Positions 8,450 through 40,650 of a DNA stretch of 64,000 bases are shown here, piece after piece; the first letter of the stretch is position 1; every line of letters begins with the position of its first letter. A program made the position numbers and the translations under genes. Below the pieces are notes generated by a model, which worked only from the letters and a program-made list of their open reading frames with translations, did not search any database and was not told the origin of the DNA. Origin of the DNA: Tubulanus polymorphus (lineage: Eukaryota > Animalia > Nemertea); the NCBI RefSeq assembly GCF_964204645.1, contig NC_134026.1, positions 26,012,150-26,076,149 on the forward strand. Reading direction: 5' to 3'.

Positions 8450-11756
<3,307 letters not shown>

Positions 11757-12198: not shown

Positions 12199-12360
12199 GA
12201 CGTATAACCTGCATTTATTAATCATCGCGTGCGTACGTATACATCATTTGAACGATAGTAATAAATACCTATAAAGAGGACACGCAATTATTGTAATTAT
12301 CAAATACTTTCTTGTCACTGCGTTTATTAAATGTTTGTTTGATGATAACCCGGGATTCAG

Positions 12361-12683
<323 letters not shown>

Positions 12684-13194
12684 TTCTGTGTAAAAATTCC
12701 ATGGGAAAACCGTAATTCATATCTGATAACGATTTCAAATGCGCCCAATATCGGCCAAGTACAGAAATTAATTTGCGGGGAAAAAATCTTCAAAGGACTT
12801 GTGGGTTTCATTTTCACCATTCCGGTTCACTACTGGAGCTTTTTCCAATAAGCGAATACATGTTCTCTTTATTACATTAAATTTATTTTGTCCATATGAA
12901 TATAAACAATATTAACTTGGATATATAACTGAATTAAGAAGCTCTAACACTAAACACAATAAATGACTTATCTATTTAGAATAACATTTGAAATATATAC
13001 AAATAAATTATTGCTTTTAGAATATTGGTCACTGCATTTTACACTTGAAAAGTAACTGAACAGAAAAGTATCTTATTTCATGAATGCCAAATCTGAATAT
13101 GCGTTTTTGTATAATATCTTATATTATTCCATGTCGTATAAGTTCTCGAAATGTATTTACTTGGCGTGACACTGATCTTCTCACAGCTCTAGTA

Positions 13195-16100
13195 CTAACC
13201 TGCAAAGGAAAGTCCGAAGTAATGATTATGCTAAAACTACGCGGTACCATCAGATTAGAATCGCTGCGAGTGAGTATATTGTGTACTTACTTCTGTATGA
13301 CGATGGTTTATCACTAAGCATATCATCGTCATCTTTTTTGAAGGCGTCATTGTCATACGTTAACGAATGAACTATTTTCAAGAAATAGAAAACATATTCA
13401 AGCGCACATAGAGTAGTTTCAGAACTATCGGTACTTATGTACTCAAGAATATTGATGTTGTTAATAATTACCTTGACTCTTGGCCTTTTCTTTTTCAGAC
13501 GCCTGTTTGTTCCTATATTTTCGGAGAATATTCATTTTTCGGAAAAATACCAAGATAAGTATCGCTGTCGCGGCAACCAGAGTTCCAATAGCTACAGCCG
13601 CATCTCTATATTCAATCGGTGTCATGGTTGAAACAATGGTCCACACTAGAACGCTACCCATACCAACACAGTTGGCTCCTAGAATCCACCTCGATTCTTG
13701 GTTGTTCTCGTCACTTGTCCAGGTCAAACCGGAGAAAATAGCAACAAGTACCTGGAGAAACATCACGTACGTCATGCTAAGCACCAGACCTTCATTGTGA
13801 AAATCACTTGGAGTACACCGTGGCCAGTATTGTAGCTCGTAAATTATTTGTTCAGAGTTCGGTGGTTCAAGAACGATCCATTCTATGGCAATGATCACCT
13901 GTACAAAAATCAGGCCGATCGTGATACAGAAGAGACCGAAAGGATGAGAAAACCTCTTGTAGCTTGCAGATGACGTTTCATCGTATCCCTCAACTCTCCA
14001 AGTATTCATTACTTTCACAGCCATAGACGAATAACAAATTGCATAAACGATTCCCAGACAGAAACGTCTTATTGTACAGACTACCGGACATGGATGGAAA
14101 ATAAAGGCGAAATTCACTGCGTACATCAGGAGAACACCAATTATGAGCATATATCCGAGAACAGTCGACATACCGCGTTTTGGGTAAAAGCAAATAAAGA
14201 AGATAAAACAGAAGATCGATATGATGAATCCTATACCGGACAGAATGGCAAGAACGAGTCCAAGAGCCGTATTAAACTGATCGTATTTGCCAGGAGCAGG
14301 TTTGATGCGATTTCCACCCAGTCGGCCAGCTCCGCTTGCACAGCCGCAATCAACTCCATGCGGACAGAATGATGCAGGTATGTTACCTTCGGTCTTTTTT
14401 TCACCAGATGGACCAATATAGTCATCCATTGATAAGTCCAACTGACCTCGCCAGCTCCCAATCTGAAAATAAAAGGTTCGAAATTATTTTGTGGAAATAG
14501 AATTTATGATATTAAGCAGAAATAACTTTTGTTAAAATGTACAAACGTAAACAAACCTTAACATATTCGTATTTTTTTGTTGTGGTGTTGTATCTAAAAT
14601 TGTAAATGAAGTAGCCTGGATTTCCATATCCCTCATTTGTAAAGGTGAAATCAAACCTATTACTGCCCAGGTCTGATGGAAGAACTGTCCAAACAGCACT
14701 TTTGATTTGATTATAAATCATTGAATTCCTGCTTTCCTTCTTGAGCTTCCACACGCAAGCAGAGAAGGACCCTGCGGCGGCGCAGTCCGATATTCTCGAA
14801 AGTCCTTTCGCAGCGATGTATGTCGAGATGATGATGTGTAAAGTGGCTGATTCGTACTTAACCATATTAGGAGTAATCGTTTCATTTTTCAAACATTGTT
14901 TTACGTATTTCGTCAGTACCACTCTGCTACCTTGTATGCGGCATTTATGTACGTGTTGCCAATATTCTTCGAACCAATCTAATGGTATCCCACGTCTGTT
15001 TTGGAATGATAATTTGGTGAGCCACGATATAAAACTCTGTACATGGAAGGATCGAACTTCTATAGTTAACGCACCAGCTGCTGTACTTTCTACGTCTTCA
15101 ACAACTTCCATTTCGCTAGCCCAATCGTCTCCTCCGAGCCAGATGAATCTGTCTTTAACTTTCATACGCTGTACAGCTTTAAGGATACTTCTCGTATTTT
15201 TTCCAGTTGCGAATAGTACCACTACCTTAGCATGCTCGTGCTTCAAAAGCTTCATAACGACTGCCATAGCATCTTCAACGGATGCGTCTGAATCGATCTT
15301 ATATCTTGCGCCCATACAAAGTGTAGAATTTGTCGCATTAGCAATCTTCCACAAAGCATCCATGCCACCATTACCATAATCACTATCAGTGTTGACACCA
15401 AGGAAATATGTCCAATTGAATGTGCGGAGGATACTGGCCATGGCAATGGCTTGCAGATTGTCAGGTGGTACAGTCCTTAGGAAATACGGGAATCGTGTTT
15501 TGTCACTGAGAGTTGGGGCAGACGCCGATGGACTAATGTAAGTGGCGCCTATTGATTTCATGTACGGTCCAGAAATGATACTTTCAGGAGACGCCATCGT
15601 CATATAAGCGAAGACCGTTTGAGGTGCGATGAGAGCTTCGTATGGAGGTTCACTGCATAGCCCTTCTTTATTGATGTATGTGAAGTAATCTTCGTGAAGA
15701 CGGTCATTATTTGAGCATATATCGATAGCCAAGCCTCCCATTTTGAACTTCATGTCTGTATTCGCGTTTACCAAGTCTATGGCATAAAAAAATGCCATAA
15801 CTCGTTGGAAACCTTGAGTTATCTGCATGTCACCGCATATCAAGTAGTTATCGTCGTTTTGCTCGTGTACGTTGAAAAGTCCGACCATATTCAGCCCAGT
15901 ATTGTTAGTTTGCATGTATCGTGTTTTTCTGTGCCAGATATACGGGCACATTACGCACCATTCAGGTTCCTCGCAATCTGATTGCCAATTGGGATTGTAC
16001 GTTGAAGCTATCGTCAAACCATCTTTCACAGTTGGATAATATCCGATCTGAAAAATTTTGAAATTAACGTTAATTCATGATCACGTTTGCTTATCTAAAA

Positions 16101-19100
16101 CTTCTGACATACCGATCAATACTTACGTTTTGATAGTTATAGATGAATCTATTTATGATGGATTGCCGCAGAGCATATACATGGTACCCTCGGATACTGT
16201 CTCCATTTTCTTTATAGTAGAATGGTTTATTAGTGGCATCGGTAAAATTAATCGTCTTTGCGTATTTGTAGATATCTAATTGTTGATTGGATCCTTGGCG
16301 ATAGTTGTCGCATATTCCGTCGTAATTCGGACCGCATTTGTTTCTCAGAGTTTCGTGAATGCCATAAGCGAGTGTGTAGACTGCATTGATGACGTACATG
16401 GTGAACTGGTCTTGGTGGTATTTACTGTTACGGACGACTGATTGAGAGATACTACTGCATTGGCGGGGATAGCTGAGAACATTCCCAGGAATTGTGCAAT
16501 TAAACATGTATTCATAGTATGAGTTAAACCAAGGATTTCTTTCATAAGTGTTTGGAAATTTTGAGTCGAGATAGACGTCGAATTCGGGGATATCACTGGT
16601 AGCAAGGCTAAATGTAACACCATCGCCGAGTCCGTACTTGATGCCTCTGATCACTTCTGGACTTGAACCCCAAGTTTCTGATCCAATGAAAAAGAATCTA
16701 CCGGTCCTACTGTTTGGGTACTTAAGTATCATTTTCTCGGTTGCCCGGAGGAGTGGGTTGATAAATTCTGTCTCCAGTATGATAACAACAACAGTTGCGT
16801 TTGGTCGATTAAGAAGTTCATTGGCCACCTCTAGGGCACTTTGTTGCGTCACTATTTGCGTTTCATTAAATATTAGATGTTGAGAAATGCATATAAGTTT
16901 TGACTTGGCCAATTTCACAAATTCCTTCGTAGCTCCGACGCTGTAGTGGCGTGTCGAGGAAACAACCTGCACGGCATTTATTTTGTACTTCAAAAGGAAA
17001 GACACGATGGCATTGGCGAGTTTATCATCCGCTGGCACAGTTCTGAGAAAATATGGATACTTTTTACGATCAGAGAGTTCAAGACTGGTAGCTCCATAAC
17101 TGACGAGAGGAATTTTGAGTTTTGTCAAAACTTTCGCCGCATGCTCAGTTTCCAGGGATGTAAGATCTCCGACGTAGCCGACAACTTTTGTAGGGTCAAC
17201 TTCTTCCGTACTTTTTGTTAATTTGAAAACACGCGAATGGAAATCTGCCATAAGGTTTCCCGCTCTAATTGCACTTTGACACGAGTCCATTGCAATACCA
17301 CCTAGTGTAACACCTTTCAGTTTCCCATGGAATATACCTTGGTGTTTGTTTATCTGTTCTATAGCGAACGCAAATGCTTCGGTCAGTTGAAAGCCGGCAA
17401 CTGGATTGACGTTTCCGCATGTGAACGGTTGTAAACCACGAATACTAGCATCAAAAATACCTACAACACGAGAAAAATTGCTATGTATTGTGCCTTAAAA
17501 AAACCCATTATTACAATATTTGAACTCGTACCGCCTATCAGGATATCTCCAGGGATATACAAGAACTTTTCTTTAGCCTTTGGTCTAATATTGCACTCGA
17601 CGCAAGGGGAACATGTCGATGGAATTCTCCTTGAAGTATTCAGAACCTCCGGTTGTGTAAACGACAGTTGATGTCGTACATACGTAGCAACCTGAAAAAA
17701 TCAATCATTTAAAGAAAAATTTCTATCAATATTAAACACTGTCGGACCTATTTCCATTTATTGGGTACTGATACATAATATGATTTACCTCTTCATATCC
17801 GGCACCTTTATATCTGAAAATCTTGTAGCCGTTTCCAGCTGCGCGGTTGACAAAAACAAATTGGCGTTTATCTAATGACTGGAATGATACCTTCCCGAGG
17901 TTCTGTAATATTCGGTCATTCAAGTTCCCAGCACTGATGAAATTTGCACAAACACCTAAAAAGGAAATATATGGTAGTCAATGATTTCTGAGTTACTTTT
18001 CTTCATACGCCCAAAATGTTTGCGAACATATACCTTTGTAGTTTGCTCCACACTCCTCTTCCAAGGTGAGGTGAACAGCTTGACCGAAAGCGTAAACTGC
18101 GTTGATAGTGCTAAGAACCCAGTTGTCCTGTTCAAAGTCCGGTGCATCACTCAGACCCGAAGTTTCACAGGTTTGACCGATATTGCAACCGTATACATAC
18201 TGGTAATATTCGTTAAACCAAGGATTCATCTTATAATTGGTCGGGTTTTTGTCGCTCAGATACTTTGTGAAATTTGAAATCACAGGAAAATCGACTTTCA
18301 TCGTCATAGCGTTCTCAGCTGCGCCTTCTACGCCTTTCACTGCCTTCTTGATCGTAGCCCAAGATTCACTTCCAATAAACAATAAATTTGTCGCATTTGC
18401 GAGAGCCTGTTTTTCTTTCAACAATTGGTTTACGTATTTATCAGCATCGGCAAGTACTACTACGACTTTTGAAGTTGACCCGGCTAATTTAGCTACAACG
18501 TCACCAATATTGGAAACACTTAGCTCGTAACAAGATGACAGGCATAATCTCTGAGCTAGCATATTGTTTTTGAACTCAATGATTGCTGATCGACCATAGA
18601 TGTTCCTCGAATAGACAGCCTGGACACAAGTGAAACCCAAGGCCCGTACGAACTTTGCTATGGCTAATGTTTGAATGTCATCAGTTGGAACAGTCCTATA
18701 TAGCGTTGGGTAAGTGGCGACATCGGATAAAGATGTGCTTGTTGCACTCGGGCTTATTTGAGATATATGAAGTCTTCCAACGATCTCGGCTACTTTAGCT
18801 GTGATATCGGAGCCATATGTGACCCAGCCTCGGATGTTTGACTGATCGACAGTCAATGAACTATTTGAAAGTTGCACTGTATTTGAATGTATGCCCGATA
18901 TCAAATTAGCAGCCATAAAATCACTGGAGCAACTGTCCAGGCCGACCCCACCTAGGCGAACTCCATTCAATTTCACTGGAGCCGTTCCATTGTTGATCGA
19001 TTTAATGGCGAAAGCAAATGCCTCACTTGATTGAAATCCATTGAAATCCTTTAGGTCTCCGCACGAATAAGGAGTTGGTCCAGGCCAATGGATGTTGAAC

Positions 19101-22100
19101 AATCCACCGATAAGTACGTCTCCGGGTATATACATGAATTTCGTCTGATACCGTGATATACAAATTTTACATAAATTACCAAGCGATGCGGGGCACATTG
19201 AGGTTATTGTTTTATTTCCGTAGTACTTGGGAGTTCCAGTCATTGACAAATTTTTTCCGCTGTATTCTCCAACCTGATAAAAATAGAATTATGTTATTAA
19301 GATTGATTCAGAATATGTACTCAAAATACTGGTTTAGAAAATGTACTCAAAATACACATTAGATACATATGCCATAGAAATGCAAGGGAATCATGCATAC
19401 CTTGACATAACCAGCTGCTTGGTAATTATAGATTTCATAATCTGCAACACCTTCGTCATTTATGAATGTAAACAAACGCCCCGCTTCATCAGTAAATTGG
19501 GCTTTGCGGATGAACTCTAGCATAGTCGCTTTCCGGTCCAATGCTGTGCGATAAGCATTACAAACAGTGTTATAATTTTGACCACAGTAATATTCCAATG
19601 TCGAATTAGTCGCTGTAACGATTGCCTGGACTGCATTTAGTAAGTTCAAAGTAACTGGATCTTGGGCAAACCCTGGAGCATCGGTTATCTCTTTGGATGC
19701 GTCGCATGGTACTGGATAACGAACCTGACTCTGAGCAGTTAAGTAACAATTGTATAAGGATTCGTACCAGTCTCTGAAAAATGGGTTCTCCTTTTCAGTA
19801 AGAACATTAACTGACTGTAGGTATGCTATAAAGCTTGGCAGTGGTGGCGATTTCAGTTTTGTCGTAAAGGTTCCAACGGCTATATCTTCGTAACCGTTGA
19901 TAATTTCATTGGAGGTCCCCCAGTTTTCGCTTCCAAAAAGCAGTAATTTTCCACCCATATTTGATGTCTTCATGGCACCCAGCAGACATCGAAACTGTTC
20001 TACGTCGGCAAATACGACCACGACCTTTGCATTTACTCTTAAGCTGAGTTTATGAATCAACTGGAGGCAAGTACCATCAGTACCAAACTCGAGGGTCGCT
20101 GTCACACAAATTCTGCCTTCTGCCTCTGCGTACTTGATGAAAGCATCAATTCCAGCCCGACCGTAACTTGTTGGTGCCTGTATCGTTTGAACATGGGTCC
20201 AACCTTGGTTCTTCAGAAAACTAGCAATCACTTGCGCCTGATATCCATCGTTTGGAACCGTTCTCAGAAAAAAGGGAAATCGTCGCTTGTCAGACAATGC
20301 CGCCGACGTTGCCCTATATCCAACCTGTGGGATTCTGAGAGGTGATAACACCTCCGCCACGGATATGGTCGTAGAGCTGTCATGAGCAGCAGTGTATGCT
20401 TCCACCTGACTTGGGTTAATAACATTACCCTTGGAATCCATAACTGTAATCAGATTATTCTGAAAACTCGCCACTAAACCATTAGCAATGTTTGAACTAC
20501 CACAATCATCGATACCAAGGGCACCTAAGTTGATGTCACCGCCTAATTTTGCTTTTGAAATAGCATAGACGAAGGCAGTCATCAGTTGCGCTCCGTTGTT
20601 TTTCACCCGAGTACAGTAGGCTCCATTTTCTGTCTCATGCACAGAAAATACCCCATTGATAATGATGTCTCCAGGTTTGATATAAAACTTTGACGCGACG
20701 TTGAGGCTAAGACAGAAGCCACAACCACTAGCAGGACAAATCGACTTCGGTACACTGGCAAGGACGTTTGTTCGTTGACTATCATACATTTTAAGTTTTG
20801 TCAAATTAAGTGTAAGTTGGTCATTCATGTAATATCCAACCTAAAAAGTAAATTATTCGAGAATTTTCATTTTATATTGGAGAGGAAAATATATTTTAAG
20901 CTTGGCTATAATGGCTTACCCTTTGCAAAGTAGTTGTTGCACCATTCAATATATTACTCCATACGACATAACTGGCTCCGATAATGTCACCGTTGGTGTC
21001 GAAACTGATTTCCGATGTAAAAGGTGCAGACACAGCAGACGAAGAATTGATGCCCTCATTCGTTATTGAAGTCGTCTTAACATAATTCTGAAAGAATTCT
21101 TTCGTAGATGTAGATTCCAGTGTCTGACAAATTGTTGTATTTCCTTCGCATTTTGTCCGTAGTGCTCTTTTGAGAGCATCGGCATACGTGTAAACGGCGT
21201 CTATGGTCGACGAGACGTACTGATTCTGGATGTATTGTTGTTGTTTTTGTGCTGTTGTCAGTGGTGGACATACGTTTGGGAGTGACGCATATGGTTCATA
21301 CGTGACCCCTGCCAATTTACAGTTATGAGTGTACATATACCAGTCTCTGTACCACGGATCGTTTGCTGGGTTGTTGATGTCGATTCCAAGCCAGCTATTT
21401 TCAAATTCAGTCGAGGTACGTGATGATGGTGAAACAGAAACATAACCTCTCGCATACTGTTGACCGGTTGCAAAAGTATTACTGACACCGACTGCATCGG
21501 AGAATATCCACTGCAATCGACCATATTTTTCAATGGTGGAGTTAATTTTCATAATCTCTAGCGCCGGGATGTAATGACCAAAATACACTACACCAGTGAT
21601 GTTTGTGGACAATAATTGAGTAAGGATGCCTTCAATTATGGGTGGATCTTGTTCAAAAGTCCTAACAGGAAGTGCGATATTTATACATATTCCAGCCTCA
21701 CCGGCTGCCATGATAAACTGTTTTTTGCCATCACTACCATATGCATCATCTGAATATACCAGGCCGATATATTTCCAATTCAATTTCTTCAGAACCTCAA
21801 TCATAACCTAGAGATTATTCGGAACGAAGAATATGACGTGAGTTACATCTTTAGCAGAAATTCGGTAACAAATACAGAAATAATGAATTTAACCTTCGTT
21901 TGCATTGTATCCGGTGGAATAGTTCTCATAAAATATGGGTATTTATTTTTGTCACTCAACGTAGCTGCTGTTGACATAGGCGAAATTTGAGCCACTTCGA
22001 ATTTGCCACTCCAGTCAGCCACACCTAAGCTCACAGAACTATGTGAAGCTCCTAGAATCCCTGTAAAACAACCATTCATTGTTCCAGTAAAAATGTTTTA

Positions 22101-22765
22101 GATTTAATGAAAATAGATTAAATTGGAATTGATCTTAAATACCTAAAACAAGTTGATTCCCATCCGAGCAAGTTCTTTTATTGGTGTAAACAGAGGGATA
22201 AAACTCCATAGCAGCTCTGTTGGCGACGCTTGCTTGGCCACATGTATCAAATACTTTCATTCCTGTTAGTTAGAAAACCCAATATCACGATTTTTCGAAC
22301 TAATAAACGTTTATACGAAGCCACTTGATTTGTCATTTGATACTCACCTATCTGGACGCCAGCATAATTGATTGTGTTTATTTCCGTAAGAGCCCACTTT
22401 GCTGCTTCATATGCAGGTAAAATCACTGAAATATATGATTTGGAAAGAACGCTGATTCAACGTATCACCGAAACTCAATGATATTCTAAATTGTAACTAA
22501 GAATTAACGTAAGCATCTGGTGTAGTTTCAAATATTAGCACTAAATACCTGGATCAGGGGTTCCGCAGCCAGATCCATCATTTCCTGGGATACGGATATC
22601 AAACAGACCGACAATCACCACTGGAGCATTTGGAAACAAGTTTACAGCACTTTTACTGGCATCGCATGTATCTTGGGCTAGTGTGTCCTGTCCTGAGCAG
22701 TTAATAACTAACGCCATTATCAGCAACGTGATTGTGAGTAACTTTTCCATATTCCTTAAACACAT
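13195..22765 (-). CDS. Giant class C (mGluR-related) GPCR A: signal peptide, 5 tandem Venus-flytrap domains, 7TM; about 2,800 aa
   Basis: Signal peptide MEKLLTITLLIMALVINCSG. VFT1 exons about 22765-22549, 22426-22349, 22262-22143, 22060-21894, 21807-20921; VFT2 20840-19401; VFT3 19273-18034 plus 17955-17790; VFT4 17691-17535 plus 17461-16126; VFT5 16047-14559; 7TM 14462-13473; tail exons 13371-13290 and 13199-13195. Each VFT has G[LV]F, D[TSD]C, SP/Y.AT/S..LSDK..YPYF.RTVP.D and GS[ED].W-like motifs. The 7TM has class C hallmarks (C..RRF.LG..YAICYS...K, ECL2 Cys, ESRWI). Confidence 0.88.
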
Positions 22766-23525
22766 ATGAATTCATTATGATATTATTTCCACGGTCTTCT
22801 GGGCATAGGTAGGTCTTAATGATATGACCGTCCTCGGAAAAATTATATCTTTTAACCTTTAATATGAATCAAAACAAGTGGATATGCATTTTCATAATTG
22901 CTGCGTGTGTGCATACACATAAGTGATAAATTGTCTTAAGACTTACCGTAATATGCTACACCCCTTGTCTGATGCTAAATTAAACTGAATTTTTAGGTAA
23001 GACACTACAGTAACGCCGTTGCCGCCATTTTACCCAACCCATACATAGATGGCACAAATTTAGACGACCCAATTGTTTATTGTCATAACGAAAGCACAGG
23101 AATAACCTGAAAATATGTGAATTATTAGATGATTTGTTTGAAACCGGTTTTCTAATGAGTAATAAAGACGGGCGTGCATTGGTAATGTAGGTGTGATTGC
23201 TGCAAGGCGTGTACGTCGTTCAAACCCATTGAAAACAAGTTTTGAAATACTTAATATTTCATAGTTGACAAAAATTATTTATAGAAGTGCGATTAAGAAT
23301 CTTATTTGTACCCCTAAAAGACCGGTAGCTACCGCAACCTGTTGATGAAAGCGGAAAACAAATCTTACAAACAAATTTTTGACAATCTCACCTGCACCGT
23401 ATTATACGGCCAATTTTTTTTCCAGAAAATTACCTGTGTTAAAGCGTTCTGGGAAATGATAGAGTCGTTTATTCGGATATATTTTTACACTTTCACCACG
23501 AATGATCACTGACAAACCTTTCCTA

Positions 23526-23709
23526 CAGTGGAACCTCGTTGATACGAATTTTGTTGGGCAAAAACGAAATTGTCGTATAAAATGGGTTTCGTATTATCCA
23601 AAGCTTGATTGATTGAAAAATGTATAGATATGTTAGCTGGGACATGCTGGATATCATCGTTTTAAATTGGTTTCGACTCGAACAGAATCGTATTAACGAG
23701 GCTCAACTG
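23526..23709. mobile_element. Tc1/mariner-pogo-type MITE (184 bp) with TA target-site duplication
   Basis: TA|CAGTGGAACCTCGTTGATACGA ... TCGTATTAACGAGGCTCAACTG|TA; imperfect TIRs of about 22 bp; lies between the two giant GPCR genes. Confidence 0.75.
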
Positions 23710-24032
23710 TAATGTTGAAATGCATTTCCATCAACCAATTACATGAATATAACAACCAGTTTTTTTCTTGAGTTCCTCTTGGATGCCGCTATTTCAGCTC
23801 AGTTCGAACCCATCGTTTGTCGAAATAAGGAATAAGAAGGTTCATTAACCTCACAAACAAGAATAATTTTTGTGACTTGATTCATCTACTACACATGTGT
23901 AAAAGATATTTATTTCTTGAAATCAATGTATTATACATAATAGATTTATTAGATTAGTTATATACATCATCATTAGAATATTGTAATCTATAATATAATA
24001 ACGTAAACTTTCATGTTTCCTTTATGCTTCTT

Positions 24033-27000
24033 CAAACACTTGGTTGAGCCACGCATAGGTCCACGTGTTCTACGTCCCTTTCGGTAAAATTACGACTTAA
24101 TACTCGCTGAAAGATAACAGAAAATTAGAAACCATATTCAGGATGACTGTAGTTTTAAATCTGATTGCGGCAGTCACCTGAATGAATCTGCGAGCCGTTA
24201 GAAATATGTGATTCTTCGCTCAGGACTGTTGCATAGTAAAGATCTGAAAAAGAACGAAAAAAACATGCGGTGAAGAAAGCAAGGTAATGATAACAAGAAG
24301 CTAGCTTACAAATAGATTCATTTTTACCTACCTTTTGTTGTTTTTTTAGTACTGCTTTTTCCAAAGCCACCTCTTCTCTAAACTTTCGAAGGTAATAAAT
24401 CTTTCTTATAAATATACACAATACCATCACAGTTGCGCTGAATAGATTACCGATTGCTATGGCACCATCACGATATTTCATTTGCGCTCTCGTGGAGACA
24501 ATTGTCCATAAAACCCAAATACCAGCCACGAAACAACAAGTAACCAGAATCCAGCGCGATTCGCGGTTGTTTTCATCCGACCTCCAGGTCAATGCAGAAA
24601 AGATGAAGGTCAAGACAAGAAGAAACATCACGTAAACTATGCTGAGCAGCATTTCTTCATTATGAAAATCACTTGGCATACATCGGGACCAATATTGTCC
24701 CATGTAAACTACCATTTCTGATCCCGGGTGTCGGAGGGTTAGCCACTCTATAGCAATGATAACTTGAACGAAAGCAATGCCCAGTGCGATGAGGAACAAA
24801 CCAGTCGGTTTAGAGAATCTTTTGTAACTAGCTTCAGAAAAGTCGTCGTAACTGTCAACCCTCCATGTGTTCATTGCCTTTACAAGCATCGAGGCAAAAC
24901 ATATTGCATAACTGACTCCCAGACAGAATTGTCGTATACAGCAAACAGTTGGACATGGATTAAAGACAAATGCCAATGTCACAGCATATACGAACATGAT
25001 ACCGAACAGGAGGAAATATCCCAAACAGGTGGTACCGCCAGTTTTTGGATAAAAGAATAAGAAGTAAAGAAAAAGTCCGAAAGTGAATAGAAAGCCAAGA
25101 ACTGTAGCGATAGTCACGATGACACCCCATACTGAACGGAAGTTGTCAGCTTTGCCGGCGGCTGGTTTAACGTGGACGAATCTTTGCGCTCGACCAGCTG
25201 TACCTGGACACCCGCAGTCAATTTTCTCAGGACATACAGATGAAGGGATCTCTTTTAATCTATCACCGCCTTGAGTATATCCCTCGAAGCTTCCACTACG
25301 AGACATGGTAAGCCCTTTTAGCCATCGTCCTACCTAGAATAGTAAGTTGTATTTATTAAAGTATTGTTTTGCAGGATATCCGTGATAAATAGATTTCGAA
25401 TACTTACAGGAATGTATTTATGTGTATTAGTCGTTGGTTCATATCGCAGATTGTTCACGACATAGCCAATATCCCCATGCCCATCTTCGGTAAATCGGAA
25501 ATTGAATGATTCTGATTTCAGGTCATCCGGCAATACTTGCCACTGGGCATAGTTGATGCTGTTGTAGATCAAAGCATGTTTAATTTCTCTTTTAACCCGC
25601 CACAAACAATAATCAGCCTCTAGCCCTAAGCACTCAGGAATATTCGTCACTCCTTTCGCTGCCATAAAAGTAGCAATGATTAATCGTAATGTCCTAGGAT
25701 CCTCGCCTATCGAGACATTTTTCATGCTTTCGTTTCTAGTACATGCTCTATTGTACTGCCGTTGAACTACGATACTGTTCTCAAGTCGACATTTGTGGAT
25801 ATGCTGCCAATATTCTTCAAACCAATCAGTTGGTATTCCTTTCCGATTTGTAAATGTTAATTCCCTTAGCCAACTGATAAACCCATTAACCACGTGTGAA
25901 TGAACCTGCAATGTGATAGCACCCCTGGCAATTTCCTCGAGTCCACGTATGATGTTGTAATCGGTAGACCACGAATCAGATCCAATCCACACAAACCTAC
26001 CGAATAAGTTAAGTTCCCGGCAAGCCTGGAGAATCAATCGGTTCTGATGAACGGAAGTGAACAGAACAACTACTTTAGCATGAGTGAGTGAGTCTAGACT
26101 TCTGAGCGCATCTTTAGCATCATCAAGCGTTGCCGATAAAGGTAGAATTTTCCTTTTTCCAAAGCACAGAGTGGAATTCGGTTTATTGGCAATATCCCTC
26201 AGAGCGTCCATACCACCATTACCATAATCATTGTCGGTGTTTATACCCATAAACAATCCCCAGTCATAAAGCCTCAATATGCTGGCAATAGCCTCTGCTT
26301 GGAGATTATCAGGGGGTGAAATTCTCAAGAAATATGGGAATTTCTTTTTATTGCTCAGTGTCGTTGATGTAGCAATTGGACTTATCTGAACTAGTTTTCG
26401 ATCCGTGAAATATTTGCCTGCAATGATACTTTCTGATGATGTCATAGTCAAGTAAGCTACCGCAGTCCAAGGTCTTATAAGTTCCGTATATGGGGCGTAA
26501 TGGCACAAGCCACGTCCATCTAGATATGTGAACAAGTCCTGTCTTAGTCTATCCTCACTCATGCATTCATCGATAGCTAGGCCAGCTACTTTAATCGTCG
26601 ACTGGAAACGACTGATGTAGTTTTTGTTGATGATGTCGATAGCGTAGAAGAAGGCCAACATTCCTTGGAATCCGTACGTCACTCTCATCGGTCCACATTT
26701 CAAGTAGTTATTTCCGCTTTCATGGACGTTGAAGAAGCCAACTAGACTTACATCTCTCTGAGATTTCCACTGCATATATCTGGACAGGCGAGGACCAACT
26801 CTTGGGCATTTGTCGCATGCCCCTGCTGGAACACTGCAATTAGCATACCAATTTGGGTTGTAAGTAATATCGAGTTTCAAATAGTGGGTGTCGTTATAAC
26901 TTCCAACCTACAACAAAAGATTGCTAGCTTTTGAAAAAATTGCTTTTGATTCTATTAGATTGAAAGGATCATTCAATAACGATACTCAATGATAACTTGA

Positions 27001-30000
27001 ACCTAACACTCACGTTATAGTATTGTTTGGCATTGGCAAAGTCCTTCTTAAAAGCATAAACATGATAACCCCGGCTGCTCTGACCATTATCCTCGTAGTA
27101 AAATGGTTGAAAGGTGTAATCTGTATAATTCACGTATAAACTTTGATTGAACAATTCCAGACGTCTTTCGCCAGACTGACGGAAATCTTCGCAAACTCCA
27201 ATGTAGTCATTACCACAAATTTTTTTCAATGTTCCATCAAGTGCCAAAGCAATTGAGTAGACAGCGTTTATGACGTACAGAGTGAGAGGATCTTGCTTAT
27301 ATACCTGGGTATTGCGAGGTATCGACATCGAGCTACTGCCGCACGTTTTTTTATAACTCTGAACGTTTCCGGGTAAGGTGCAATTGAAAACATACTGGTA
27401 GTAAGAGCGGAACCACGGATTTCTGTTATAATTAGATGGATATTTCTTGTCTAAATATCGGTCAAATTCTGGAATATCAGCTGTTTCTAAGTCAAAGGTC
27501 ACCACTCTATCCAGTAATGTCGATTTAAGTCCCGACTTTAAAATGCTATCATCATTTCCCCAACTCTCAGAACCAATATAGAAGAATTTGCTGTTTGCAA
27601 CCGGGTCTTTGTCGACTGCCTTTAGGAATGTTTTCAGAAAATCCATCTCTAAGATGGTAATGATGACTGATGCGTGTAGATCCTTCTTCATTACTGCGAT
27701 CACGTTATTTGCCCCAGCCTCTGTGGCCGTTCCATTTTGATCTTCGAACTCGATTTTCTTTTCAATGCATATGCCGTTCTTCCTCGCCAGTCGGATGACT
27801 TCATCAGATGCTGCCTCGGCGTAGAGTCCATGAGACGCAACTACTTGTACATGTTCAAAATTCCAGTATTTCAAGAAACTAACGATTCCTCTGGCGAGTT
27901 TATCGTCTGCTGGAACAGTTCGTAGGAAATACGGATAATTTTTCTTTTCAGCCAAAGTAAGCCCGGAAGCACCATAACTTATGTGTGGAATATTCATGAC
28001 GTTGAGAACCTTTGCTATTTCTTCACTGGCCAAAGTGGTCAGTCCAGCTACATATGCCAATATCTTCGATGGTACAATTGTTGTACGACCTTCGCGTAAT
28101 GTTATCACACCAGCATTGAGATCCGCCACCAGATTTCCCCCGCGAATGGCGCTTTGACATGAATCCACTGAAATACCACCCAGATTGACACCTGGCAATT
28201 TTCCGGCGAAGATGCCTTCTCTCCTCTGTATTTTCTCTAATGCGAAATTAAACGCCTCCGTAAGCAGAAAGCCATTTTTAGGGTTAACTTTTCCACAGGA
28301 AAACGGGTCTGGGCCTGGTTTACTTACATCAAACACCCCTGAAAATTTCAAAGTATTTCGATGTTTTCAATTACGAAACGATTTGGAGGCGTAATCTATA
28401 AAGCTATACTGTTACCTGCAATTAGAAGATCACCAGGGTAGAAGGTGAACTTTTCATCGTCTTTGTCGTCTTGAGTTAGTTTACATGCTATACAAGGAGC
28501 ACATAAGGATGGGTAACTTTTATACAAGTTCACCACAGCCGGATCGGTGAATTTGACTTTTCTGTCAATATACTCCGCAACCTATACATATGCAGAATGA
28601 AAACTAAGTTCAGTAAATCGAACAATTGATAACAGCAATGGCCAAAAATTACATACAGTACTTACCTTAGAGTATCTGCCACTTACTACACGACTGATAT
28701 CATATCCCATCTTCCCAGATCTTGCATCAAACGTAAAACTCTTGTTCGTGACCGAGATGAAATCGACTTTAGCTAGATTTTCAAGAATCTTTGTATTGAC
28801 ATCTGGACTACCGATAAACTGGGGGCAAATTCCTTAAATTACGAAAATATTGCGTGATTATTTGAAAGCGTAGAGATAATGTATAGTTCTGAGCTACAAT
28901 GTTACTATTAATTCTTACCGACAGATTGGTTCCCGCAAAGATCCTTCAGTGTTAGATTAATGGCTTGCGCTGTGGCGTACACGGCATCTATTGTACTAAC
29001 GACAAAGTTTTCTTGCTCATATTTCGCATTGCTTGTTATAGCTGTGTTGCTTGTACAGTTTTTCCCGACGACACAATTGAACATCATCTGGTAATATTCA
29101 TCGAACCAGGGGTTTCTTTTATTCGATCCTAAAAACTTTTTTTGAAGATAAGTATTGAATTCAGCCACCACTGGGGACTCTATTTTGATAGTAAACGCAT
29201 TTTCCGCAGCTGCAGCTCTCCCAGCGGCAGTAATACTTTTTAGTTGGCCCCAGGATTCACTGCCGATGAGAACCAAATTCTTTCCATTAGAATTTTTCGC
29301 TTTTGCATCCAAAAAGCGGCCAACATATTGATCCGCGTTAGCAAAGACGATTACAATTTTAGTTGATGATGTTAAGAGTTTGGCTACGATTTGATCATAA
29401 CTTCCATCACCACTCTCAAGGGCGTAACAGCTGGACAGGCAGAGCTGTAGCGCTTTTGCTGCTTTTTGAAATTCAACGGCCCCAGAAAGACCATAAACGT
29501 TGGGTGCATATACAATTTGGGCACATTTCCAACCCATAGATTTAACAAACTCCGCCATCGCCATCGCCTGTACGCTGTCAGGTGGTACAGTACGGTAAAA
29601 TGTCGGATAGACTCGTTCATTTTGCAGTTCCTCACTTGTGGCACTCGGGCTCACCTGTGGGATATTGAGACGTGATAGGATTGCGTTGACCTTCAACGAT
29701 TTGTAACTACCATAAGTAAGCCATGTGTGAATGTTCTTATAGTCGATCACCTTTCCATCTTTTTTCAACTTCAGCGAGCCGGAATGCACACTAGAAACTA
29801 AATTTGTCGACAGATAATCACTAGAACAATCATCCAGACCGACTCCACCTAGAAGTACACCATTCAATTCGATTCCAGCAGTACCACTGTTTATTTTATC
29901 AATGGCATGGGCGAAAGCTTCAGAAAATTGGAAACCATTAAAATCCTTCATTTTGCCACATGTATAGGCACTGCTCCCGGTCCAGTGTATGTTGAAAAGA

Positions 30001-33000
30001 GCTCCAATCAAAAGTTCTCCAGGTACGTACAGAAATTTCGTCTTAATTCGTGTAAGGCAAATGGAACAGGCGGCGCCCCCTGTACAACGAGAGACGGTTG
30101 GCTGATCCATATAGTACTTGACGTTCAAAGTATCTAGAGTTAATTGGTCTGTTTTATAAACATAATCACCAAGCTAAAATAAAACAAAATACGCATATAT
30201 AAGTATCTATTGATATCAAAAGACTTTTACTGGAGAAAACAATAGCTGTACATCCGTGTACCAACCTGACGATATCCTGTGGTTCGTCCTTGATAGTTAT
30301 TGATTTCATATTCGCCAACTCCTTCGCCGTCAGTGAACCTAAAAACTTTTCCAGATTCGTCGACAAACTCCGCTTTCGTGATATTTTCTAATAAGACGCT
30401 GGATCTCCCGTTTTCGGCTTTGAAAGCAGGACAGACTGTCGTGTAGTCATTTCCACACAACGACCTTAAGGTTGCATCAATTCCCTTTACAATAGCATAA
30501 ACAGCATCTATCACGTATAAGGCAAATGGATCTTGCTTCTTTCCAAACAGCGAAGAATCTGGGATTTTTCTAGTAATGTTGCACGATGTTGAATATATAC
30601 CCTGACTTTGGGCGGAAATATAACAGCCAAACATGCTTTCGTACCATTCTTTGAACCAGGGATTTCTCCTGTAAGTATCAACATCCAAACTACGCAGATA
30701 TTTGATAAAGTCAGTAAGGAACGGGGTTTTTAAACTCAATGAAAACGTCCCCACAGCGATGTCCTCATATCCTTCAACGATACTCATTGACGTTCCCCAA
30801 GTAACACTTCCGAATAGTAAGATTTTCCCTGCAATTCTCTGATTTTTAATAGCCTCTAACAGACAACGGTATTCTACAGCTTCGGCATACACAATCACCA
30901 CTCGAGCATCAGCTCGAAGTCCCACTTTTTGGATAACCTGGTCACAATTACCATCTCTAGCGAGCTCATATGTGGCTGTGACGCATATTCCATTTTGCTC
31001 AGCCGTTTTTATGAAAGCATCAATTCCGTCTCTGCCATACGTTGTTGGAGCTTGTATAGTCTGTACGTATGACCAGCCTTGTTCTTTTAATGTTTTTACG
31101 ATAGCCATCGCCTGCTTCGTGTCCGAGGGTACAGTTCGTAGGAAATAAGGGAATCTGTTCTTATCTGATAAAGCCGTACTTGTAGCTCTATAACCGACCT
31201 GTGTCATTCGTAATTGAGTAAGCATATCAGCAATTGAAATCGTGGTTTGGCTACTGTGCGCGGCAGTATAGGAAAATACGTTACTAGGTTCAACTGCAAA
31301 GCCGGAATTATCTTTGATGTTTAGCATGTGGTTGTGGAAGCTTGTTACTAACCCACGTGCTATGGTGTTACTGTTACAGTCATCAATCCCCAAAGCTCCG
31401 ACTTTGATTTCACCTTGTAAAAATCCGGACATTTTATCAATGGCGTATGCGAATGCTTCTATCAGTTGGGCTCCATTTTTCATGACAGCTGAGCACGCTT
31501 GACCACCAGAGCCTCGGTGTACAGAAAATATACCATTGACGATAATATCACCTGGTATAATCAGAAAACGAGTTCTCCCTTGTAAGATGAGACAGATACC
31601 ACACCCAGTTAATGGACACGGCGATGGCGGTAAGTTGTTGAGAACGGTGGTACGTTGTCCGTTGTACATCGATATATTTTTCATGTCCAAAGTCAATGCA
31701 TTGTTGATGTAATAACCGACCTGTAAACAAATTTCAAAGTTAATTTGAGTGGCAATAAAAAATGAAATAATGTAAGTCTGACGGGATGAAGGTTTGATAT
31801 TTTTCTACTTGCCCTTTCAATGAGATCTCTGCCAAAGTTACCGTTTCTTCTATAATTCCAAACATCGTAGATGGGATCTGTAATATCACCGTTATTGTCA
31901 AATTTCGTAGTCTTAGCGAACCCGTAAGGCACTTCAAGATAGGATGACCAGCTAAAAATTCTTTCCGGATTCCCGTATGTAATATCAACCTTTCTTAGAT
32001 ATTTCTGGTAAAATTCTGATGTGGTCATATCTGCTAAAGCTTGACAAACTCCTCGTGTGTTGTTGCACTTGGCTTTACGAGCATCCCTGAGTCCCCTGGC
32101 AAATGTATAAACTGCGTCGATTGCTGGTAATACAAACTGGTTCTGGACATACTCCTGTCGCTTCTCGGGCTCCCTCTGACTCTTGCACGAAGGCAAAGAC
32201 GCGTATGGAGCGTATGTGACTTCTGCGAGTTTGCAGTTGTGGGAACTCATGTACCAGTCCTTGTACCACGGATTATCGGGAGGCGGATCATTTTCATCTA
32301 GTCCAATCCAGTGAGCTTGGAATTCTGGTGTTCTCCGTGATGACGGCGATACTGAGAGGAAACCTCTGTTATACGTGGTAATCTTGGCGAATTCTATACT
32401 TGTGCCAATAGTATCAGAAAATAGCCATTGAAGTTTACCTGCGTTGGTTACATTTGAACCAATCATCATGAGCTCTTTAGCCGCGTTGTGTCCGCCTAAA
32501 TACACAACTCCAACTGTTCCACTTTTAAGTAGTTGTGAAAATATATTTCTGAGATTTTTTGGATCTTTTTCAAAAGGTTTGACCGGTAGAGCCACTTTTA
32601 CACAAATTCCTGCTTCAACTGCCAGTCTTATCAATTCCTGGCGCCCATCCTCTCCATATGTATCTGAAGTGTACACCAAGGCAACATATTGCCAGGTAAG
32701 CTTCTTCAATACTTCAACCATTACCTAACATGAAATAAAGACTTTTTACAATCAACGGAATATTGTATTAATTGAAAGCCACAGAATTTAAAAGTATTTG
32801 CAAATGAGGACGAAATTCAAATTTGATTTTTCCCTTTGCATTCTGCGAACCTTCACTTGAACCGAATTCGGTGGTACCGTTCTCATGAAATGTGTGTATG
32901 TTTCTTTATCACTGAGCGGCGTGAGCGTAGCTGAAGGGGAAATCTGTGGTACTTTGTGCTGGGTCAAAAATTCAGCGACAGATTTTGTCACTGTACTATC

Positions 33001-33736
33001 AGTAGCGCCCAATACACCTAAATGAATGACAATTATATGGAACATAGGAGTGAGATACTAGAGTTAATCCATATCAAATTTAATCAAATAAACTTACCTA
33101 AAAACAGACTAGTTTTATTCAGTGCACAATTTCGTTTATTAGAATAAAGATTTGGCATGAAATCTAAAACAGCTCTCTCCCCGAGTTTTGCCTGACCACA
33201 CGTATCATAAACTTTCATTCCTAAAGAAGAATTTTTCGCTTGTTTAGATTATTCAATACAATTTCTACAATAATCATCTAAGTATATATGCATCTTACCG
33301 ATTTTCATTCCAGGAATGTAACTGTCTTGTATAGGTGCGTTGTTTATATTTCCACTATCTAAATTAATCCTTTGCAACGCCCAAAGTACTGCTTCGTAAA
33401 TAGGCAGGGCCACTGAAATAAACACACGTATGTTAACCATTTTAATCAATATCTTTCGTAGAGATTTTAATAGAAATAGAATCAGAAAGAATACACTGAA
33501 TATCATTTCCGATATTGCTATGATAGTATTTCCTTACTTGGATTTGGGGTTCCACAACCCAAGCCTCCTGCGTCTGGTGTTCTCAAGTCAAATAAACCAG
33601 CTATCATAGCATTTGCGTCTGGTTGAATTGTCAGCAGATTTTTCGATATATCACAGGTATCTCTCGCCAGTGTATCTGCTGCAATTACAGCATGGCTGAC
33701 GTAGGTCACCATCAAGACAATCACTAACATCGCCAT
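24033..33736 (-). CDS. Giant class C GPCR B (tandem paralog of A): signal peptide, 5 tandem Venus-flytrap domains, 7TM; about 2,800 aa
   Basis: Signal peptide MAMLVIVLMVTYVSHAVIA. VFT1 exons about 33736-33538, 33413-33299, 33219-33098, 33017-32851, 32724-31813; VFT2 31720-30266; VFT3 30173-28919 plus 28833-28667; VFT4 28581-28416 plus 28338-27014; VFT5 26907-25408; 7TM 25333-24327; short tail exons about 24243-24178 and from 24107 (final exon frame and stop uncertain, about 24090 or 24033). Same motifs and intron positions as gene A. Confidence 0.87.
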
Positions 33737-37700: not shown

Positions 37701-39405
37701 TTCGGAGTTATTATAGATTTGAGACTTACCAATTATACGAAAAATATCGCCAACACTTCGTTCTTTAATTGGCACGGTCATGAACAATCTGCCCCATGTT
37801 TTAACCGGGGGTAGTTGCTCCACAAGATGATCTCTCGTATTGCCTTCGATCGATGTTTTTTCCGCTCCGGAAAACACTGATATCGGTTTATCGGAAATGA
37901 TTTCCGTGCCAGTTAGGTCACCTAAATCAGTCTGGATTTGAAAAGTTTCGAACGCGTTCAAATTAAATGTCAATGATTCGCCACTTTTGTACTGCATCCT
38001 ATTGTATTGAATGTAAATCTTTGGATGGCCTAATTCGTCCATGATTACAGGCATGATAACCGTAACTGTAGTAGCATTTTCAATCGCTGCTATGACCATT
38101 TCAGATTTAGCCGTCCCTTCTTTGTAGGAGGCGACGAAATATCGTGTATCCATAACATCAGTGGGTAAACCAAGGAAAGCATCGGACGAACCAAACTGTT
38201 TGTTTATGCCATAAACAACGATTGTATCTGTGGCAGATACCAATATTCCTTAAAAATTCATAAGATATTTCATAATTAATGCCGAATAAGATTCCGATAG
38301 TTTACGCAAATGAATTGTTTTTTAAACATTTCAATAATCACCCTAAGCTAGTTTCCTCTGGAATATTTAAAGCCACATAGATATGGGGAGACTGGATGTA
38401 AGTTTAATTCATGAATAATAAATTGATAAGATCACGAGATTGAGACATTTGATTGTTTTGATTTACGAATGAGTTTTCTAATTTTAGCTGTTCTCTGGCT
38501 GTAAATGCGAATTGGATTGGCCGCAAACAAGAGCTTTAACGCAGATTCACGTGTTCATGAGTTCAACGAGAATTAAGAATTCCTAGAATGTTTTCATACC
38601 ATTTCTCGACAGACCAGTTCCTTCTCGGGATGGGACATCCGTGTGAAGTGAAACTAACTGACCCTGTCCGCGTTCGACGACAATATTCTGGTCATGGACA
38701 CTATTAAGTAATGGCAGAGAAATGGTGACATCGACAGGCGTGTTGGAATACGTGGTTATCATTAGTTCAGAGTTTTTATCACCATGTCGAGCGGAGAGGT
38801 ACTGGTTATGCATGAATGCTAGCACGAATTTACTACCTTGGTTATCGGGAACATCTGAAACAGAATGAGCAAATAGATTTCGAAGCTATTTCTTCGTGAT
38901 TTGTTTTGCTGTTATGAAAAAATCCGTTTATCTATACTTTTATACAATATATTTTGCCGATTTACTTTTAGCAGGGAATTGCCCCTACTTCTCAAAAGGA
39001 TATCCCTGGTATAATGCCCCTATAAATTGCTGCTACACAAACATGCATCATGTTCAAGACATAATTTCGTATATGTTCAATGATCATTAATCTAGTTACA
39101 CGTAGTATGCTAAGATAACGAAGGAAGGTCAATTAGAGTTTGCCATGTTCGCATGATGTTAATGCGTAGCGCAACCGTCGTTGGACATTCACGTTCTTTC
39201 TACGAAAGAATTTCAATAAAATTGAACCGACTTCGTTGTCGCATTCAATGCATCATGAAAATTAGCGAAATCAGATAGATTTATACATATAATCAGATTC
39301 TATGAAATATATCATACCTTTGTACGTAGCAGGATTTGCTAATCGTAATCTCCAATAGACAACCATAAAACAGCCGATTATTATTTTACTTCTGTAGATA
39401 GACAT
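34715..39405 (-). CDS. Type I membrane protein: IgGFc-binding-protein N-terminal domain, acidic DxDxDG repeats, long Ser/Thr mucin-like stalk, TM and cytoplasmic tail
   Basis: Exons about 39405-39318 (signal-like), 38854-38600 (PDNQGSKFVLAFMHN), 38248-37730 (SSDAFLGLPTD...G DLTGTEIISDKPISVFSG...RDHLVEQLPPVKTWG), about 37646-34715 (DPFMIVIPPSSQF...YESYGYPAG; GDGLDNDCDEKIDEELYNGIDDDGDGYIDED; S/T-rich stretch; TM IMIGSVLFGIPIVLLVICVVKALVYY). These are IgGFc_binding family signatures. Confidence 0.82.
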
Positions 39406-40306: not shown

Positions 40307-40345
<39 letters not shown>

Positions 40346-40618
40346 GTGCGTGTGTGCGTGTGTGCGTGTGTGCGTGTGTGCGTGTGGGCGTGCGCGCGTG
40401 CGCGCGTGCGCGCGTGCGCGCGCGCGCATGCGTGTATGTATGTATGTATGTATGTATGTATGTATGTATGTATGTATGTATGTATGTATGTGATGTAGGT
40501 ATGCTACCTACCTACCTACCTACCTACCTACCTACCTACCTACCTACCTACCTACCTACCTACCTACCTAACCTACCTACATCACATACATACATACATA
40601 CATACATACATACATACA

Positions 40619-40650
<32 letters not shown>

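Follow-up and report, generated by a model that had tools for sequence, protein, structure and literature searches.

Two tandem genes of the nemertean Tubulanus polymorphus encode class C receptor proteins with five Venus-flytrap modules in series

Results

Two receptor genes with five flytraps each

The DNA analysed, a stretch of 64,000 nucleotides from Tubulanus polymorphus (hereafter the window), carries two minus-strand genes, A and B, each of which encodes, after splicing, five Venus-flytrap (VFT) modules and one class C seven-transmembrane domain (7TM). The genes are paralogous. We consider it about evenly probable (roughly 0.5) that their products work as dimers and sense amino acids, though not glutamate; the VFT next to the membrane would then drive the 7TM, and the four outer VFTs would widen or tune the range of ligands. 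The best reading of the family to which they belong is that of an orphan, mGluR-related, multi-pocket amino-acid sensor.

Both reading frames are open from ATG to stop (Table 1), and the two models are identical, letter for letter, to the T. polymorphus database proteins P0208 (gene A) and P0057 (gene B). The introns are AT-rich and 71-127 nt long, and 24 of the 25 are GT-AG. The exception, the VFT1/VFT2 intron of gene A (31812-31721), is GC-AG and was absent from an earlier, sequence-only reading of this DNA; gene B has a GT-AG intron of equal position and phase. A further 71-nt intron lies in the 3' UTR of gene A, beyond the tail exon (about 24107-24177). A different gene A tail, using a donor four bases later, was dropped because a spliced contig (see below) has an 88-nt skip.

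Table 1. Features of the two receptor genes, in window positions.
Feature	Positions	Strand	Remarks
Gene A	24220..33736	-	Signal peptide, five VFTs, class C 7TM; 13 coding exons, 2,802 aa; P0208, LOC141898799
A, signal peptide and VFT1	31813..33736	-	Five exons; exon 5 Pfam-scanned
A, VFT1/VFT2 intron	31721..31812	-	Phase-0, GC-AG; also in database model P0208
A, three-cysteine linker and VFT2	30266..31720	-	One exon
A, linker and VFT3	28666..30173	-	Two exons
A, linker and VFT4	27014..28581	-	Two exons
A, linker and VFT5	25408..26907	-	One exon
A, last three-cysteine linker and class C 7TM	24332..25333	-	Pfam, spliced contig
A, short tail exon with stop	24220..24243	-	Gene model, spliced contig
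Gene B	13195..22750	-	Signal peptide, five VFTs, class C 7TM; 14 coding exons, 2,787 aa; P0057, XP_074641006.1, LOC141898800
B, signal peptide and VFT1	20920..22750	-	Five exons; exon 5 Pfam-scanned
B, linker and VFT2	19401..20840	-	Pfam, spliced contig
B, linker and VFT3	17789..19273	-	Two exons
B, linker and VFT4	16127..17691	-	Two exons
B, linker and VFT5	14557..16047	-	Pfam, spliced contig
B, last three-cysteine linker and class C 7TM	13472..14462	-	Pfam, spliced contig
B, cytoplasmic tail	13195..13371	-	Exons 13291-13371 and 13195-13199; gene model, agrees with P0057

The module and membrane exons were scanned with Pfam at curated cut-offs. ANF_receptor was above its cut-off in all ten module exons (E 2.6e-22 to 1.4e-47), and 7tm_3 (cut-off 33.5 bits) scored 130 and 121 bits in the two membrane exons (E 1.2e-37 and 1.1e-34), so that both genes have the five ANF_receptor domains and single 7tm_3 domain expected of them. 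NCD3G was sought by Pfam in both proteins and gave no match. In the stretch that separates the N-terminus from the 7TM, a hydropathy scan revealed no hydrophobic segment in either protein, in agreement with the claim that there is no internal signal peptide. At the N-terminus itself, the segment of gene A passed the hydropathy threshold; that of gene B did not, yet it reads like a signal peptide. The two ectodomains contain 19 and 24 N-glycosylation sequons.

The repeat unit consists of a VFT and a three-cysteine linker, with phase-0 introns on both sides. The linker is a remnant of the cysteine-rich domain, with three cysteines in the window proteins against nine in the mGluR controls. A helix-F cysteine together with exactly three linker cysteines was found in 195 of 213 modules of the family. 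In arthropods, all eight third modules have lost the helix-F cysteine and seven of these have two linker cysteines, a co-loss that is one evolutionary event. By analogy with the Cys234-Cys518 bond of mGluR2, a disulfide may join the lower lobe of each VFT to the linker that follows it; single-cysteine and two-cysteine linkers disagree on which linker cysteine would be the partner.

Spliced contigs cross the module junctions

Apparent merges of neighbouring genes do occur among the database matches. We excluded multi-VFT entries from fish (Siganus, Acnodon, Polypterus and Clarias), which are probably gene models that merge tandem CaSR/V2R-type genes: the Siganus and Acnodon modules cluster with CaSR-type flytraps, and the Siganus and Polypterus entries have partial modules and a 7TM that is absent or misplaced. 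Genes A and B could likewise be one-VFT genes fused by prediction or assembly, and gene A depends on the GC-AG intron, but such an artefact is extremely improbable. In sequencing run X2, a 7,694-nt contig skips seven of the 13 gene B introns, all five module junctions among them. A 7,048-nt contig from the same run, reaching from 31600 to the tail, lacks seven of the 12 gene A introns from VFT2 onwards (five among the joints listed, two from record coordinates) and spans four of the five module junctions; the VFT1/VFT2 joint is not among the joints listed. None of the joints listed corresponds to any of the first four introns of gene A or gene B, and the last two introns of gene B lie outside the stretch examined. 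We infer that run X2 is cDNA, though it is not on record as RNA, because the introns are skipped exactly. The same joints were looked for in the genomic-type run X1 and none was seen, and in run X5 only two short unrelated pieces aligned. The in-phase splicing into continuous frames claimed earlier is thus borne out by spliced RNA over the junctions crossed. For the GC-AG joint of gene A, the support comes from homology together with the database model.

Other observations also argue against a fusion. Introns of this length are too short to hold promoters, no internal signal peptide is present, and full-length relatives in molluscs and Lineus are collinear with the window proteins (29-35% and 43-48% identity, respectively). 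In addition, seven Logan proteins of 2,730-2,885 aa are encoded on contigs of 8.8-10.2 kb, which we read as spliced transcripts. We conclude that the merged-gene explanation is largely refuted for gene B.

The five-flytrap array is older than the gene pair

Modules at the same position in A and B are 48-55% identical, whereas all other pairs of modules show 18-34% identity, which upholds the proposal that each VFT is closest to its counterpart in the other gene. Between the genes, pS is 0.75-0.88 and pN 0.29-0.35, in support of constraint on the protein, as had been proposed; since synonymous sites are saturated, no numeric dN/dS is given. In trees, VFT modules cluster by position across phyla. 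The array is therefore older than the A/B duplication, as the sequence-only reading held, and it even predates the split between nemerteans and molluscs.

Nemertean and mollusc members have five VFTs; those of chelicerates, one crayfish, echinoderms and one hemichordate have four, and amphioxus members have two to three. Almost all of these database proteins are annotated as uncharacterized. They include Lineus LOC135483288/289, Pecten LOC117333478, Mytilus LOC127711239, Limulus LOC106458191, Saccoglossus LOC100374272 and Branchiostoma LOC118426443, predictions without functional study that share the repeat unit of the window genes. The relatives differ from the window genes in having two to four modules outside Lophotrochozoa, internal repeats that have partly expanded independently, and more decayed pockets. 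A match in a relative of red algae (P0184) is partial only.

The recurrence of gene pairs could suggest that A and B form an obligate heterodimer with each other, like the subunits of T1R and GABA-B receptors, and have been kept as a pair for that reason. Lineus has two consecutively numbered genes on one contig, molluscs have two paralogue groups with partly complementary pockets, and in run X2 A and B have similar contig depth, a weak indication. Set against this, the nemertean copies form one group apart from both mollusc groups (support 99.8/99), indicating that the gene pairs do not descend from one ancient subunit pair. FastTree and IQ-TREE conflict, at low support, over the branching of Tubulanus A, B and Lineus 288, and with it over whether the A/B duplication is older than the divergence of Tubulanus and Lineus; tandem duplication would by itself explain the adjacency of the genes. 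We therefore regard obligate pairing of A with B as quite improbable.

Pocket residues favour amino acids other than glutamate

All five residues that anchor the amino-acid backbone are kept in eight of the ten window modules, and four of them in the other two. Equivalents of Arg78 and Lys409 occur together in none of the ten modules, and the arginine alone in one. The anchors suggest that the modules bind amino acids, and loss of the Arg78/Lys409 pair points to selectivity for amino acids other than glutamate. In the earlier description of the modules as amino-acid-binding clamshells, the conserved pocket stands, and it is this residue conservation that speaks for binding. A helix-F tyrosine and cysteine, which in mGluR2 link the pocket to the cysteine-rich domain (part of PMC12394075), are present in all ten modules.

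Pockets are less well kept among the relatives. In one mollusc paralogue group the mean number of anchors is 1.8 of 5 at VFT2 and 2.4 at VFT3, in the other it is 2.7 of 5 at VFT1, and arthropod modules mostly have 0-3 of 5. Decay of this kind at several positions speaks against binding by all five modules as a general requirement. Conservation was best in the 7TM; among the VFTs it was highest in VFT4 rather than in the membrane-proximal VFT5, a poor fit to a simple model in which the proximal module is the driver. Helix B is part of the mGluR dimer surface. Its conservation was strongest in VFT4 and VFT5 (0.64-0.86, as against 0.48-0.71 in VFT1-3), an observation that was counted in favour of the sensor reading preferred here.

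The 7TM of both proteins retains the lysine of TM3 and the glutamate of TM6, together with the two cysteines of the ECL2 disulfide. In TM7, however, both have arginine in place of the proline, and the TM6 tryptophan is missing in gene B, changes which indicate that signalling may differ from that of mGluRs.

Relation to known receptors

The solved structures nearest to VFT2 are mGluRs (E 1e-58) and the one nearest to the 7TM is mGlu3 (E 2.7e-18). Like mGlu1-8 (for example PDB 9llz, 8wg9, 6n4y and 8tqb), the window proteins have the ANF_receptor fold, 7tm_3, the helix-F tyrosine and cysteine, and the backbone anchors. They differ in carrying five flytraps instead of one and a three-cysteine linker instead of a nine-cysteine domain, in lacking the Arg78/Lys409 pair, in the replaced TM7 proline, and in a 7TM that falls outside the mGluR clade. 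In a FastTree analysis of 68 7TM sequences, built with no GABA-B outgroup, the multi-VFT protostome receptors formed their own clade (0.999) outside an mGluR clade of 11 sequences (0.938).

Class IV mGluRs (insect mXR) and CaSR-type sensors likewise keep the backbone anchors and lose the glutamate-specific ones (portions of PMC6307864 for the former; CaSR rows compared here for the latter). Unlike the window proteins, these receptors combine a single flytrap with a complete cysteine-rich domain, and in trees the window proteins do not cluster with single-VFT sequences of mGluR or CaSR type. GABA-B receptors have no cysteine-rich domain between VFT and 7TM, in contrast to the cysteine linker found here; the window 7TM matches GABA-B1 at E 1e-4 as compared with 1e-18 for mGlu3, and no GABA-B entry was found for VFT2 among the 60 matches listed.

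Discussion

For class C receptors, the twisting of a single flytrap dimer is taken to account for activation. On the sensor reading that we favour, the window receptors would dimerise, couple to G proteins and use the membrane-proximal flytrap to drive the 7TM as in mGluRs. The outer four would widen or tune the ligand range, and any influence of theirs on the 7TM is conjectural.

Alternatively, closure of any outer flytrap might be relayed to the 7TM through the disulfide-tethered linkers, or along a ladder of flytrap dimers, so that up to five ligands are integrated. A relay cysteine and a three-cysteine linker follow every module and not the last alone, position-specific modules have been retained since the nemertean-mollusc split, and eight of the ten window pockets are intact. 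Tandem flytraps can, moreover, work in concert, in a dimer, in bacterial BvgS (PMC4352136), which also carries serial flytraps on one membrane signalling protein. The parallel is an analogy only, BvgS being a histidine kinase with two periplasmic flytraps and not a GPCR. However, in a predicted two-domain model of VFT4-VFT5 from gene A (pTM 0.52, linker pLDDT under 50), which matched the mGluR flytrap fold, the domains had no fixed orientation; mechanical coupling along the chain is thus unsupported by the model. Relatives have lost pockets at differing positions, and the linker disulfide could merely stabilise the fold. A serial relay is, on balance, unlikely. Earlier suggestions of ligand counting, an AND gate or avidity gain no support here.

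The same hinge and the same decay, with folds left intact in arthropod, amphioxus and some mollusc modules, would suit outer flytraps with a mainly structural role, as a long stalk that serves adhesion, the binding of proteins or the sensing of force; no more than one or two pockets would then still work for small molecules. The numerous glycosylation sequons point the same way. Nevertheless, all ten window pockets keep at least four of the five anchors despite saturated synonymous sites, which argues against a pure spacer, since a spacer would not need them; we find this explanation doubtful.

In the class C architectures that have been described, each subunit has a single ligand domain (PMC12716839, in part). 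No description of the five-flytrap architecture was found in the mainly open-access papers searched. The main texts of the Ciona and sponge GPCR papers contain 'ANF' 0 times, and an expected mention of multi-ANF receptors was not borne out. The suggested novelty of the architecture thus holds as far as this literature goes; the family itself already stands, uncharacterised, in the public annotations of many invertebrates.

More speculatively, and with little expectation that it will hold, the proteins may represent an undescribed class C branch of bilaterian age, with flytraps chained by disulfide-tethered mini cysteine-rich linkers and a dimer that integrates up to ten pockets with different ligands. 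If true, one GPCR would by itself perform multi-input logic, and class C receptors would have a new route of activation.

RefSeq already contains predictions of both proteins; what is of interest is the family rather than this locus alone. An order of five flytraps that is fixed in nemerteans and molluscs alike, alongside relatives with four flytraps in arthropods, echinoderms and hemichordates, raises the question of whether a membrane-distant flytrap signals through other flytraps or is a mere stalk. Nemertean A and B are good subjects for such a test because the genes are compact and eight of their ten pockets are intact. Among marine invertebrates, the family constitutes an overlooked set of candidates for the reception of amino-acid cues.

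Gene structure and splicing

Six-frame translation placed extended mGluR-like reading frames on the minus strand, at 13.4–32.7 kb of the window. Models in which splice sites were placed by eye and exons joined by script gave two genes, A and B, with proteins 48.5% identical in an end-to-end alignment. Letter for letter, the models equal two Tubulanus polymorphus database proteins, P0208 (gene A, uncharacterized protein LOC141898799) and P0057 (gene B, LOC141898800). The introns are 71–127 nt long and 24 of the 25 are GT-AG. The exception, the GC-AG intron between VFT1 and VFT2 of gene A, has a strong donor context and matches the GT-AG intron of gene B in position and phase; since P0208 is identical to model A, the public annotation contains it too.

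Pfam found ANF_receptor above cut-off in 10 of 10 module exons (for VFT1, the largest exon was scanned) and 7tm_3 in both membrane exons. This is the domain content that the sequence-only reading had expected of an InterPro/Pfam scan, and it gives five Venus-flytrap domains (VFTs) and one 7TM per gene. No Pfam match to NCD3G was found in the scanned exons. All five module boundaries carry phase-0 introns in both genes, so the array may have expanded through duplication of a symmetrical block of exons.

Features of the window, with positions counted within the whole stretch
Feature	Position (nt)	Strand	Description
Gene A	33736-24220	minus	13 exons, 2,802 aa
Gene B	22750-13195	minus	14 exons, 2,787 aa
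Class C frame	42619-43662	plus	third 7tm_3 frame (Pfam)
IgGFc_binding-domain protein	~34718-38885	minus	directly upstream of gene A; long Ser/Thr-rich mucin-like stalk and a likely single membrane helix
Vanin/biotinidase-type gene	39900-41991	plus	CN_hydrolase and Vanin_C (Pfam); two exons, microsatellite-rich intron
PP2C-family phosphatase gene	~46269-49302	minus	Pfam; presumably PPM1D-like, judged from its long basic tail
Short dispersed repeat	~23520-23710		between A and B; very high depth, many variant contigs
Microsatellites	~10400-11230 and 12350-12690		long, (TA)n and (TATACA)n-type; downstream of gene B

Both genes had been proposed to splice in phase into a single frame. Contigs of sequencing run X2 skip predicted introns exactly. 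A 7,694-nt contig runs from the 7TM of gene B to its VFT1 exon, lacks 7 of 13 introns and is spliced at all five module junctions, bearing out the proposal for this gene. For gene A the proposal stands from VFT2 to the tail: a 7,048-nt contig starting inside the VFT2 exon has 7 of 12 introns removed (five are listed joints, two were read off contiguous record coordinates), and the VFT1/VFT2 joint was not among the X2 joints listed. This evidence comes from assembled contigs rather than single molecules, and neither X2 nor any other matching run listed is on record as RNA. The genomic-type run X1, which may be the assembly's own sample, spans both genes with none of these joints and no differences. 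An artefact of merged gene models is very improbable, and weaker than the relay or stalk readings weighed below. We conclude that genes A and B are real, expressed and conserved.

Family and age of the array

A query with a bivalve match returned 22 proteins, itself and 21 others of 2,730–3,045 aa, the named members being from bivalves and gastropods. A Pfam scan of 19 proteins gave nine with five ANF_receptor stretches and 7tm_3, and four with four stretches and 7tm_3; profiles built from the window found five VFTs plus 7TM in 26 of 202 collected proteins (gene B included) and four in 13. Database look-ups showed five modules in Lineus, scallops, mussel, oysters, clams, Solemya, abalone, limpet and snails, and partial models in octopus. 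The two Lineus genes have consecutive numbers on one contig. Four modules occurred in Limulus, spider, scorpions, mite, tick, crayfish, starfish, crinoid and Saccoglossus, three and two in amphioxus, and at least four, in a record without 7TM, in the flatworm Macrostomum. Database labels for nearly all these relatives read uncharacterized or hypothetical, and a few have a loose mGluR name. Seven full-length Logan proteins sit on contigs of 8.8–10.2 kb, which we read as spliced transcripts. One Logan protein forms a clade with the four named nemertean copies (99.8/99). Fish matches, whose many partial VFTs suggest merged gene models, were excluded. A mollusc family of 1,000–1,470 aa (P0006, P0007, P0008, P0017, P0021, P0115 and P0192) has two flytraps, related to the multi-VFT modules, without 7tm_3.

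Same-position modules of A and B were 48–55% identical, as against 18–34% for all other module pairs, in agreement with the positional likeness first noticed in the sequence. In a tree of 160 modules every position formed its own clade across the nemertean and molluscs (FastTree support 0.99–1.0), with A and B sisters at each position, which supports an array older than the A/B duplication. A 129-module tree supported positions 2–5 (0.97–1.0), clustered lophotrochozoan modules 2, 3 and 4 (0.999), joined the first module to arthropod (0.97) and ambulacrarian (0.98) first modules, and paired arthropod modules 2 and 3 with one another (0.95). Together, these trees indicate that a multi-VFT ancestor was probably bilaterian, that the five-module form dates back to the nemertean–mollusc split or earlier, and that internal repeats expanded partly independently. 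Between A and B, pN was 0.29–0.35 and pS 0.75–0.88 in every module; the purifying selection suggested earlier is upheld as constraint throughout the protein, saturation of synonymous sites leaving no usable ratio.

Repeat unit and ligand pockets

After each VFT comes a linker of some 35–65 residues that holds exactly three cysteines, in contrast to nine in the mGluR controls. A lower-lobe cysteine, taken here as the equivalent of mGluR1 Cys254, was present at each position in 31 or 32 of 32 five-VFT proteins. PMC12394075 places the corresponding mGluR2 residue, Cys234, at the base of helix F, bonded to the cysteine-rich domain and linking that domain to a pocket tyrosine. The lower-lobe cysteine and three linker cysteines occurred together in 195 of 213 modules. 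Arthropod third modules lacked the former in 8 of 8, with two linker cysteines in seven and none in one (a co-loss counted as a single evolutionary event); 10 other modules deviated in other ways. This distribution fits a putative disulfide joining every lower lobe to the linker that follows it, and the pattern as a whole identifies the repeat unit as a flytrap with an abbreviated cysteine-rich domain behind it.

Pockets were scored against P0135, an mGluR1-type protein among the matches, using Ser165, Thr188, Asp208, Tyr236 and Asp318, which hold the backbone of the bound amino acid. All five anchors were kept in 8 of 10 window modules, and four each in A-VFT1 and A-VFT2. None of the ten kept both Arg78 and Lys409, the glutamate-specific pair whose loss, according to PMC6307864, marks non-glutamate class IV receptors. 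Pockets of relatives were less intact. VFT2 and VFT3 had decayed in one mollusc paralogue group (means 1.8 and 2.4 of 5 anchors) and VFT1 in the other (2.7 of 5); these differing losses hint at a division of labour. Of the mollusc five-VFT groups (P0036-P0056), one keeps the VFT3 and VFT4 pockets, the other VFT1 and VFT4. Arthropod modules mostly retained 0–3 of 5 anchors. Conservation among the flytraps peaked in VFT4, with 65 positions at ≥90% against 22–43 in the others, and helix B was best preserved in VFT4 and VFT5.

Membrane domain and proposed mechanism

The nearest solved structures to the 7TM were mGlu3 and mGlu2, but it branched apart from mGluRs, in a clade with other protostome multi-VFT receptors (0.999). 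Among positions that we take to be functional class C motifs, the TM3 lysine, TM6 glutamate and ECL2 disulfide cysteines are retained, the TM7 proline is arginine, and the TM6 tryptophan is missing in gene B. A and B are class C GPCRs, and by the four criteria tested they are not mGluRs. The third 7tm_3 frame shares 48% identity with the 7TM of a Gigantopelta receptor that has a single VFT, and in the tree it falls beside the multi-VFT clade; no flytrap sequence was found in the window outside 13–34 kb, and the frame may encode a flytrap-less receptor with a short glycosylated N-terminus.

A model of VFT4–VFT5 of gene A (mean pLDDT 85.5, linker pLDDT <50, pTM 0.52) predicts two good flytraps but does not define how they are oriented to one another. 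Single mGluR flytraps were the solved structures that matched it best, each accounting for about 40% of the model, and no solved chain spanning both was among the matches listed.

We propose, with a probability of about 0.5, that A and B are amino-acid sensors: as dimers they would bind amino acids, VFT5 would drive the 7TM by way of the final short cysteine linker, and input would be broadened or tuned by the outer flytraps. A genuine serial relay along the flytraps to the 7TM would account for the repetition of helix-F tyrosine, cysteine and linker along the array; we regard it as unlikely, given the undefined VFT4–VFT5 hinge in the model and pockets lost lineage by lineage. Equally doubtful is that the outer flytraps are mainly a structural stalk, a reading that suits the arthropod members better than A and B. 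That A and B work only as an obligate heterodimer is more improbable than either.

Metazoan class C architectures comprise ANF plus NCD3G, ANF alone, or Cache plus EGF, according to PMC12716839. The literature searched, main texts of open-access articles, yielded no account of a class C receptor with several VFTs, and the architecture goes unmentioned in the available portions of PMC9138782, PMC2396169, PMC12716839, PMC6267866, PMC6307864, PMC11650548, PMC11682238, PMC4302439, PMC12394075, PMC4352136 and bioRxiv 10.64898/2026.04.13.718258. The interest of genes A and B rests on a five-flytrap architecture that is family-wide.
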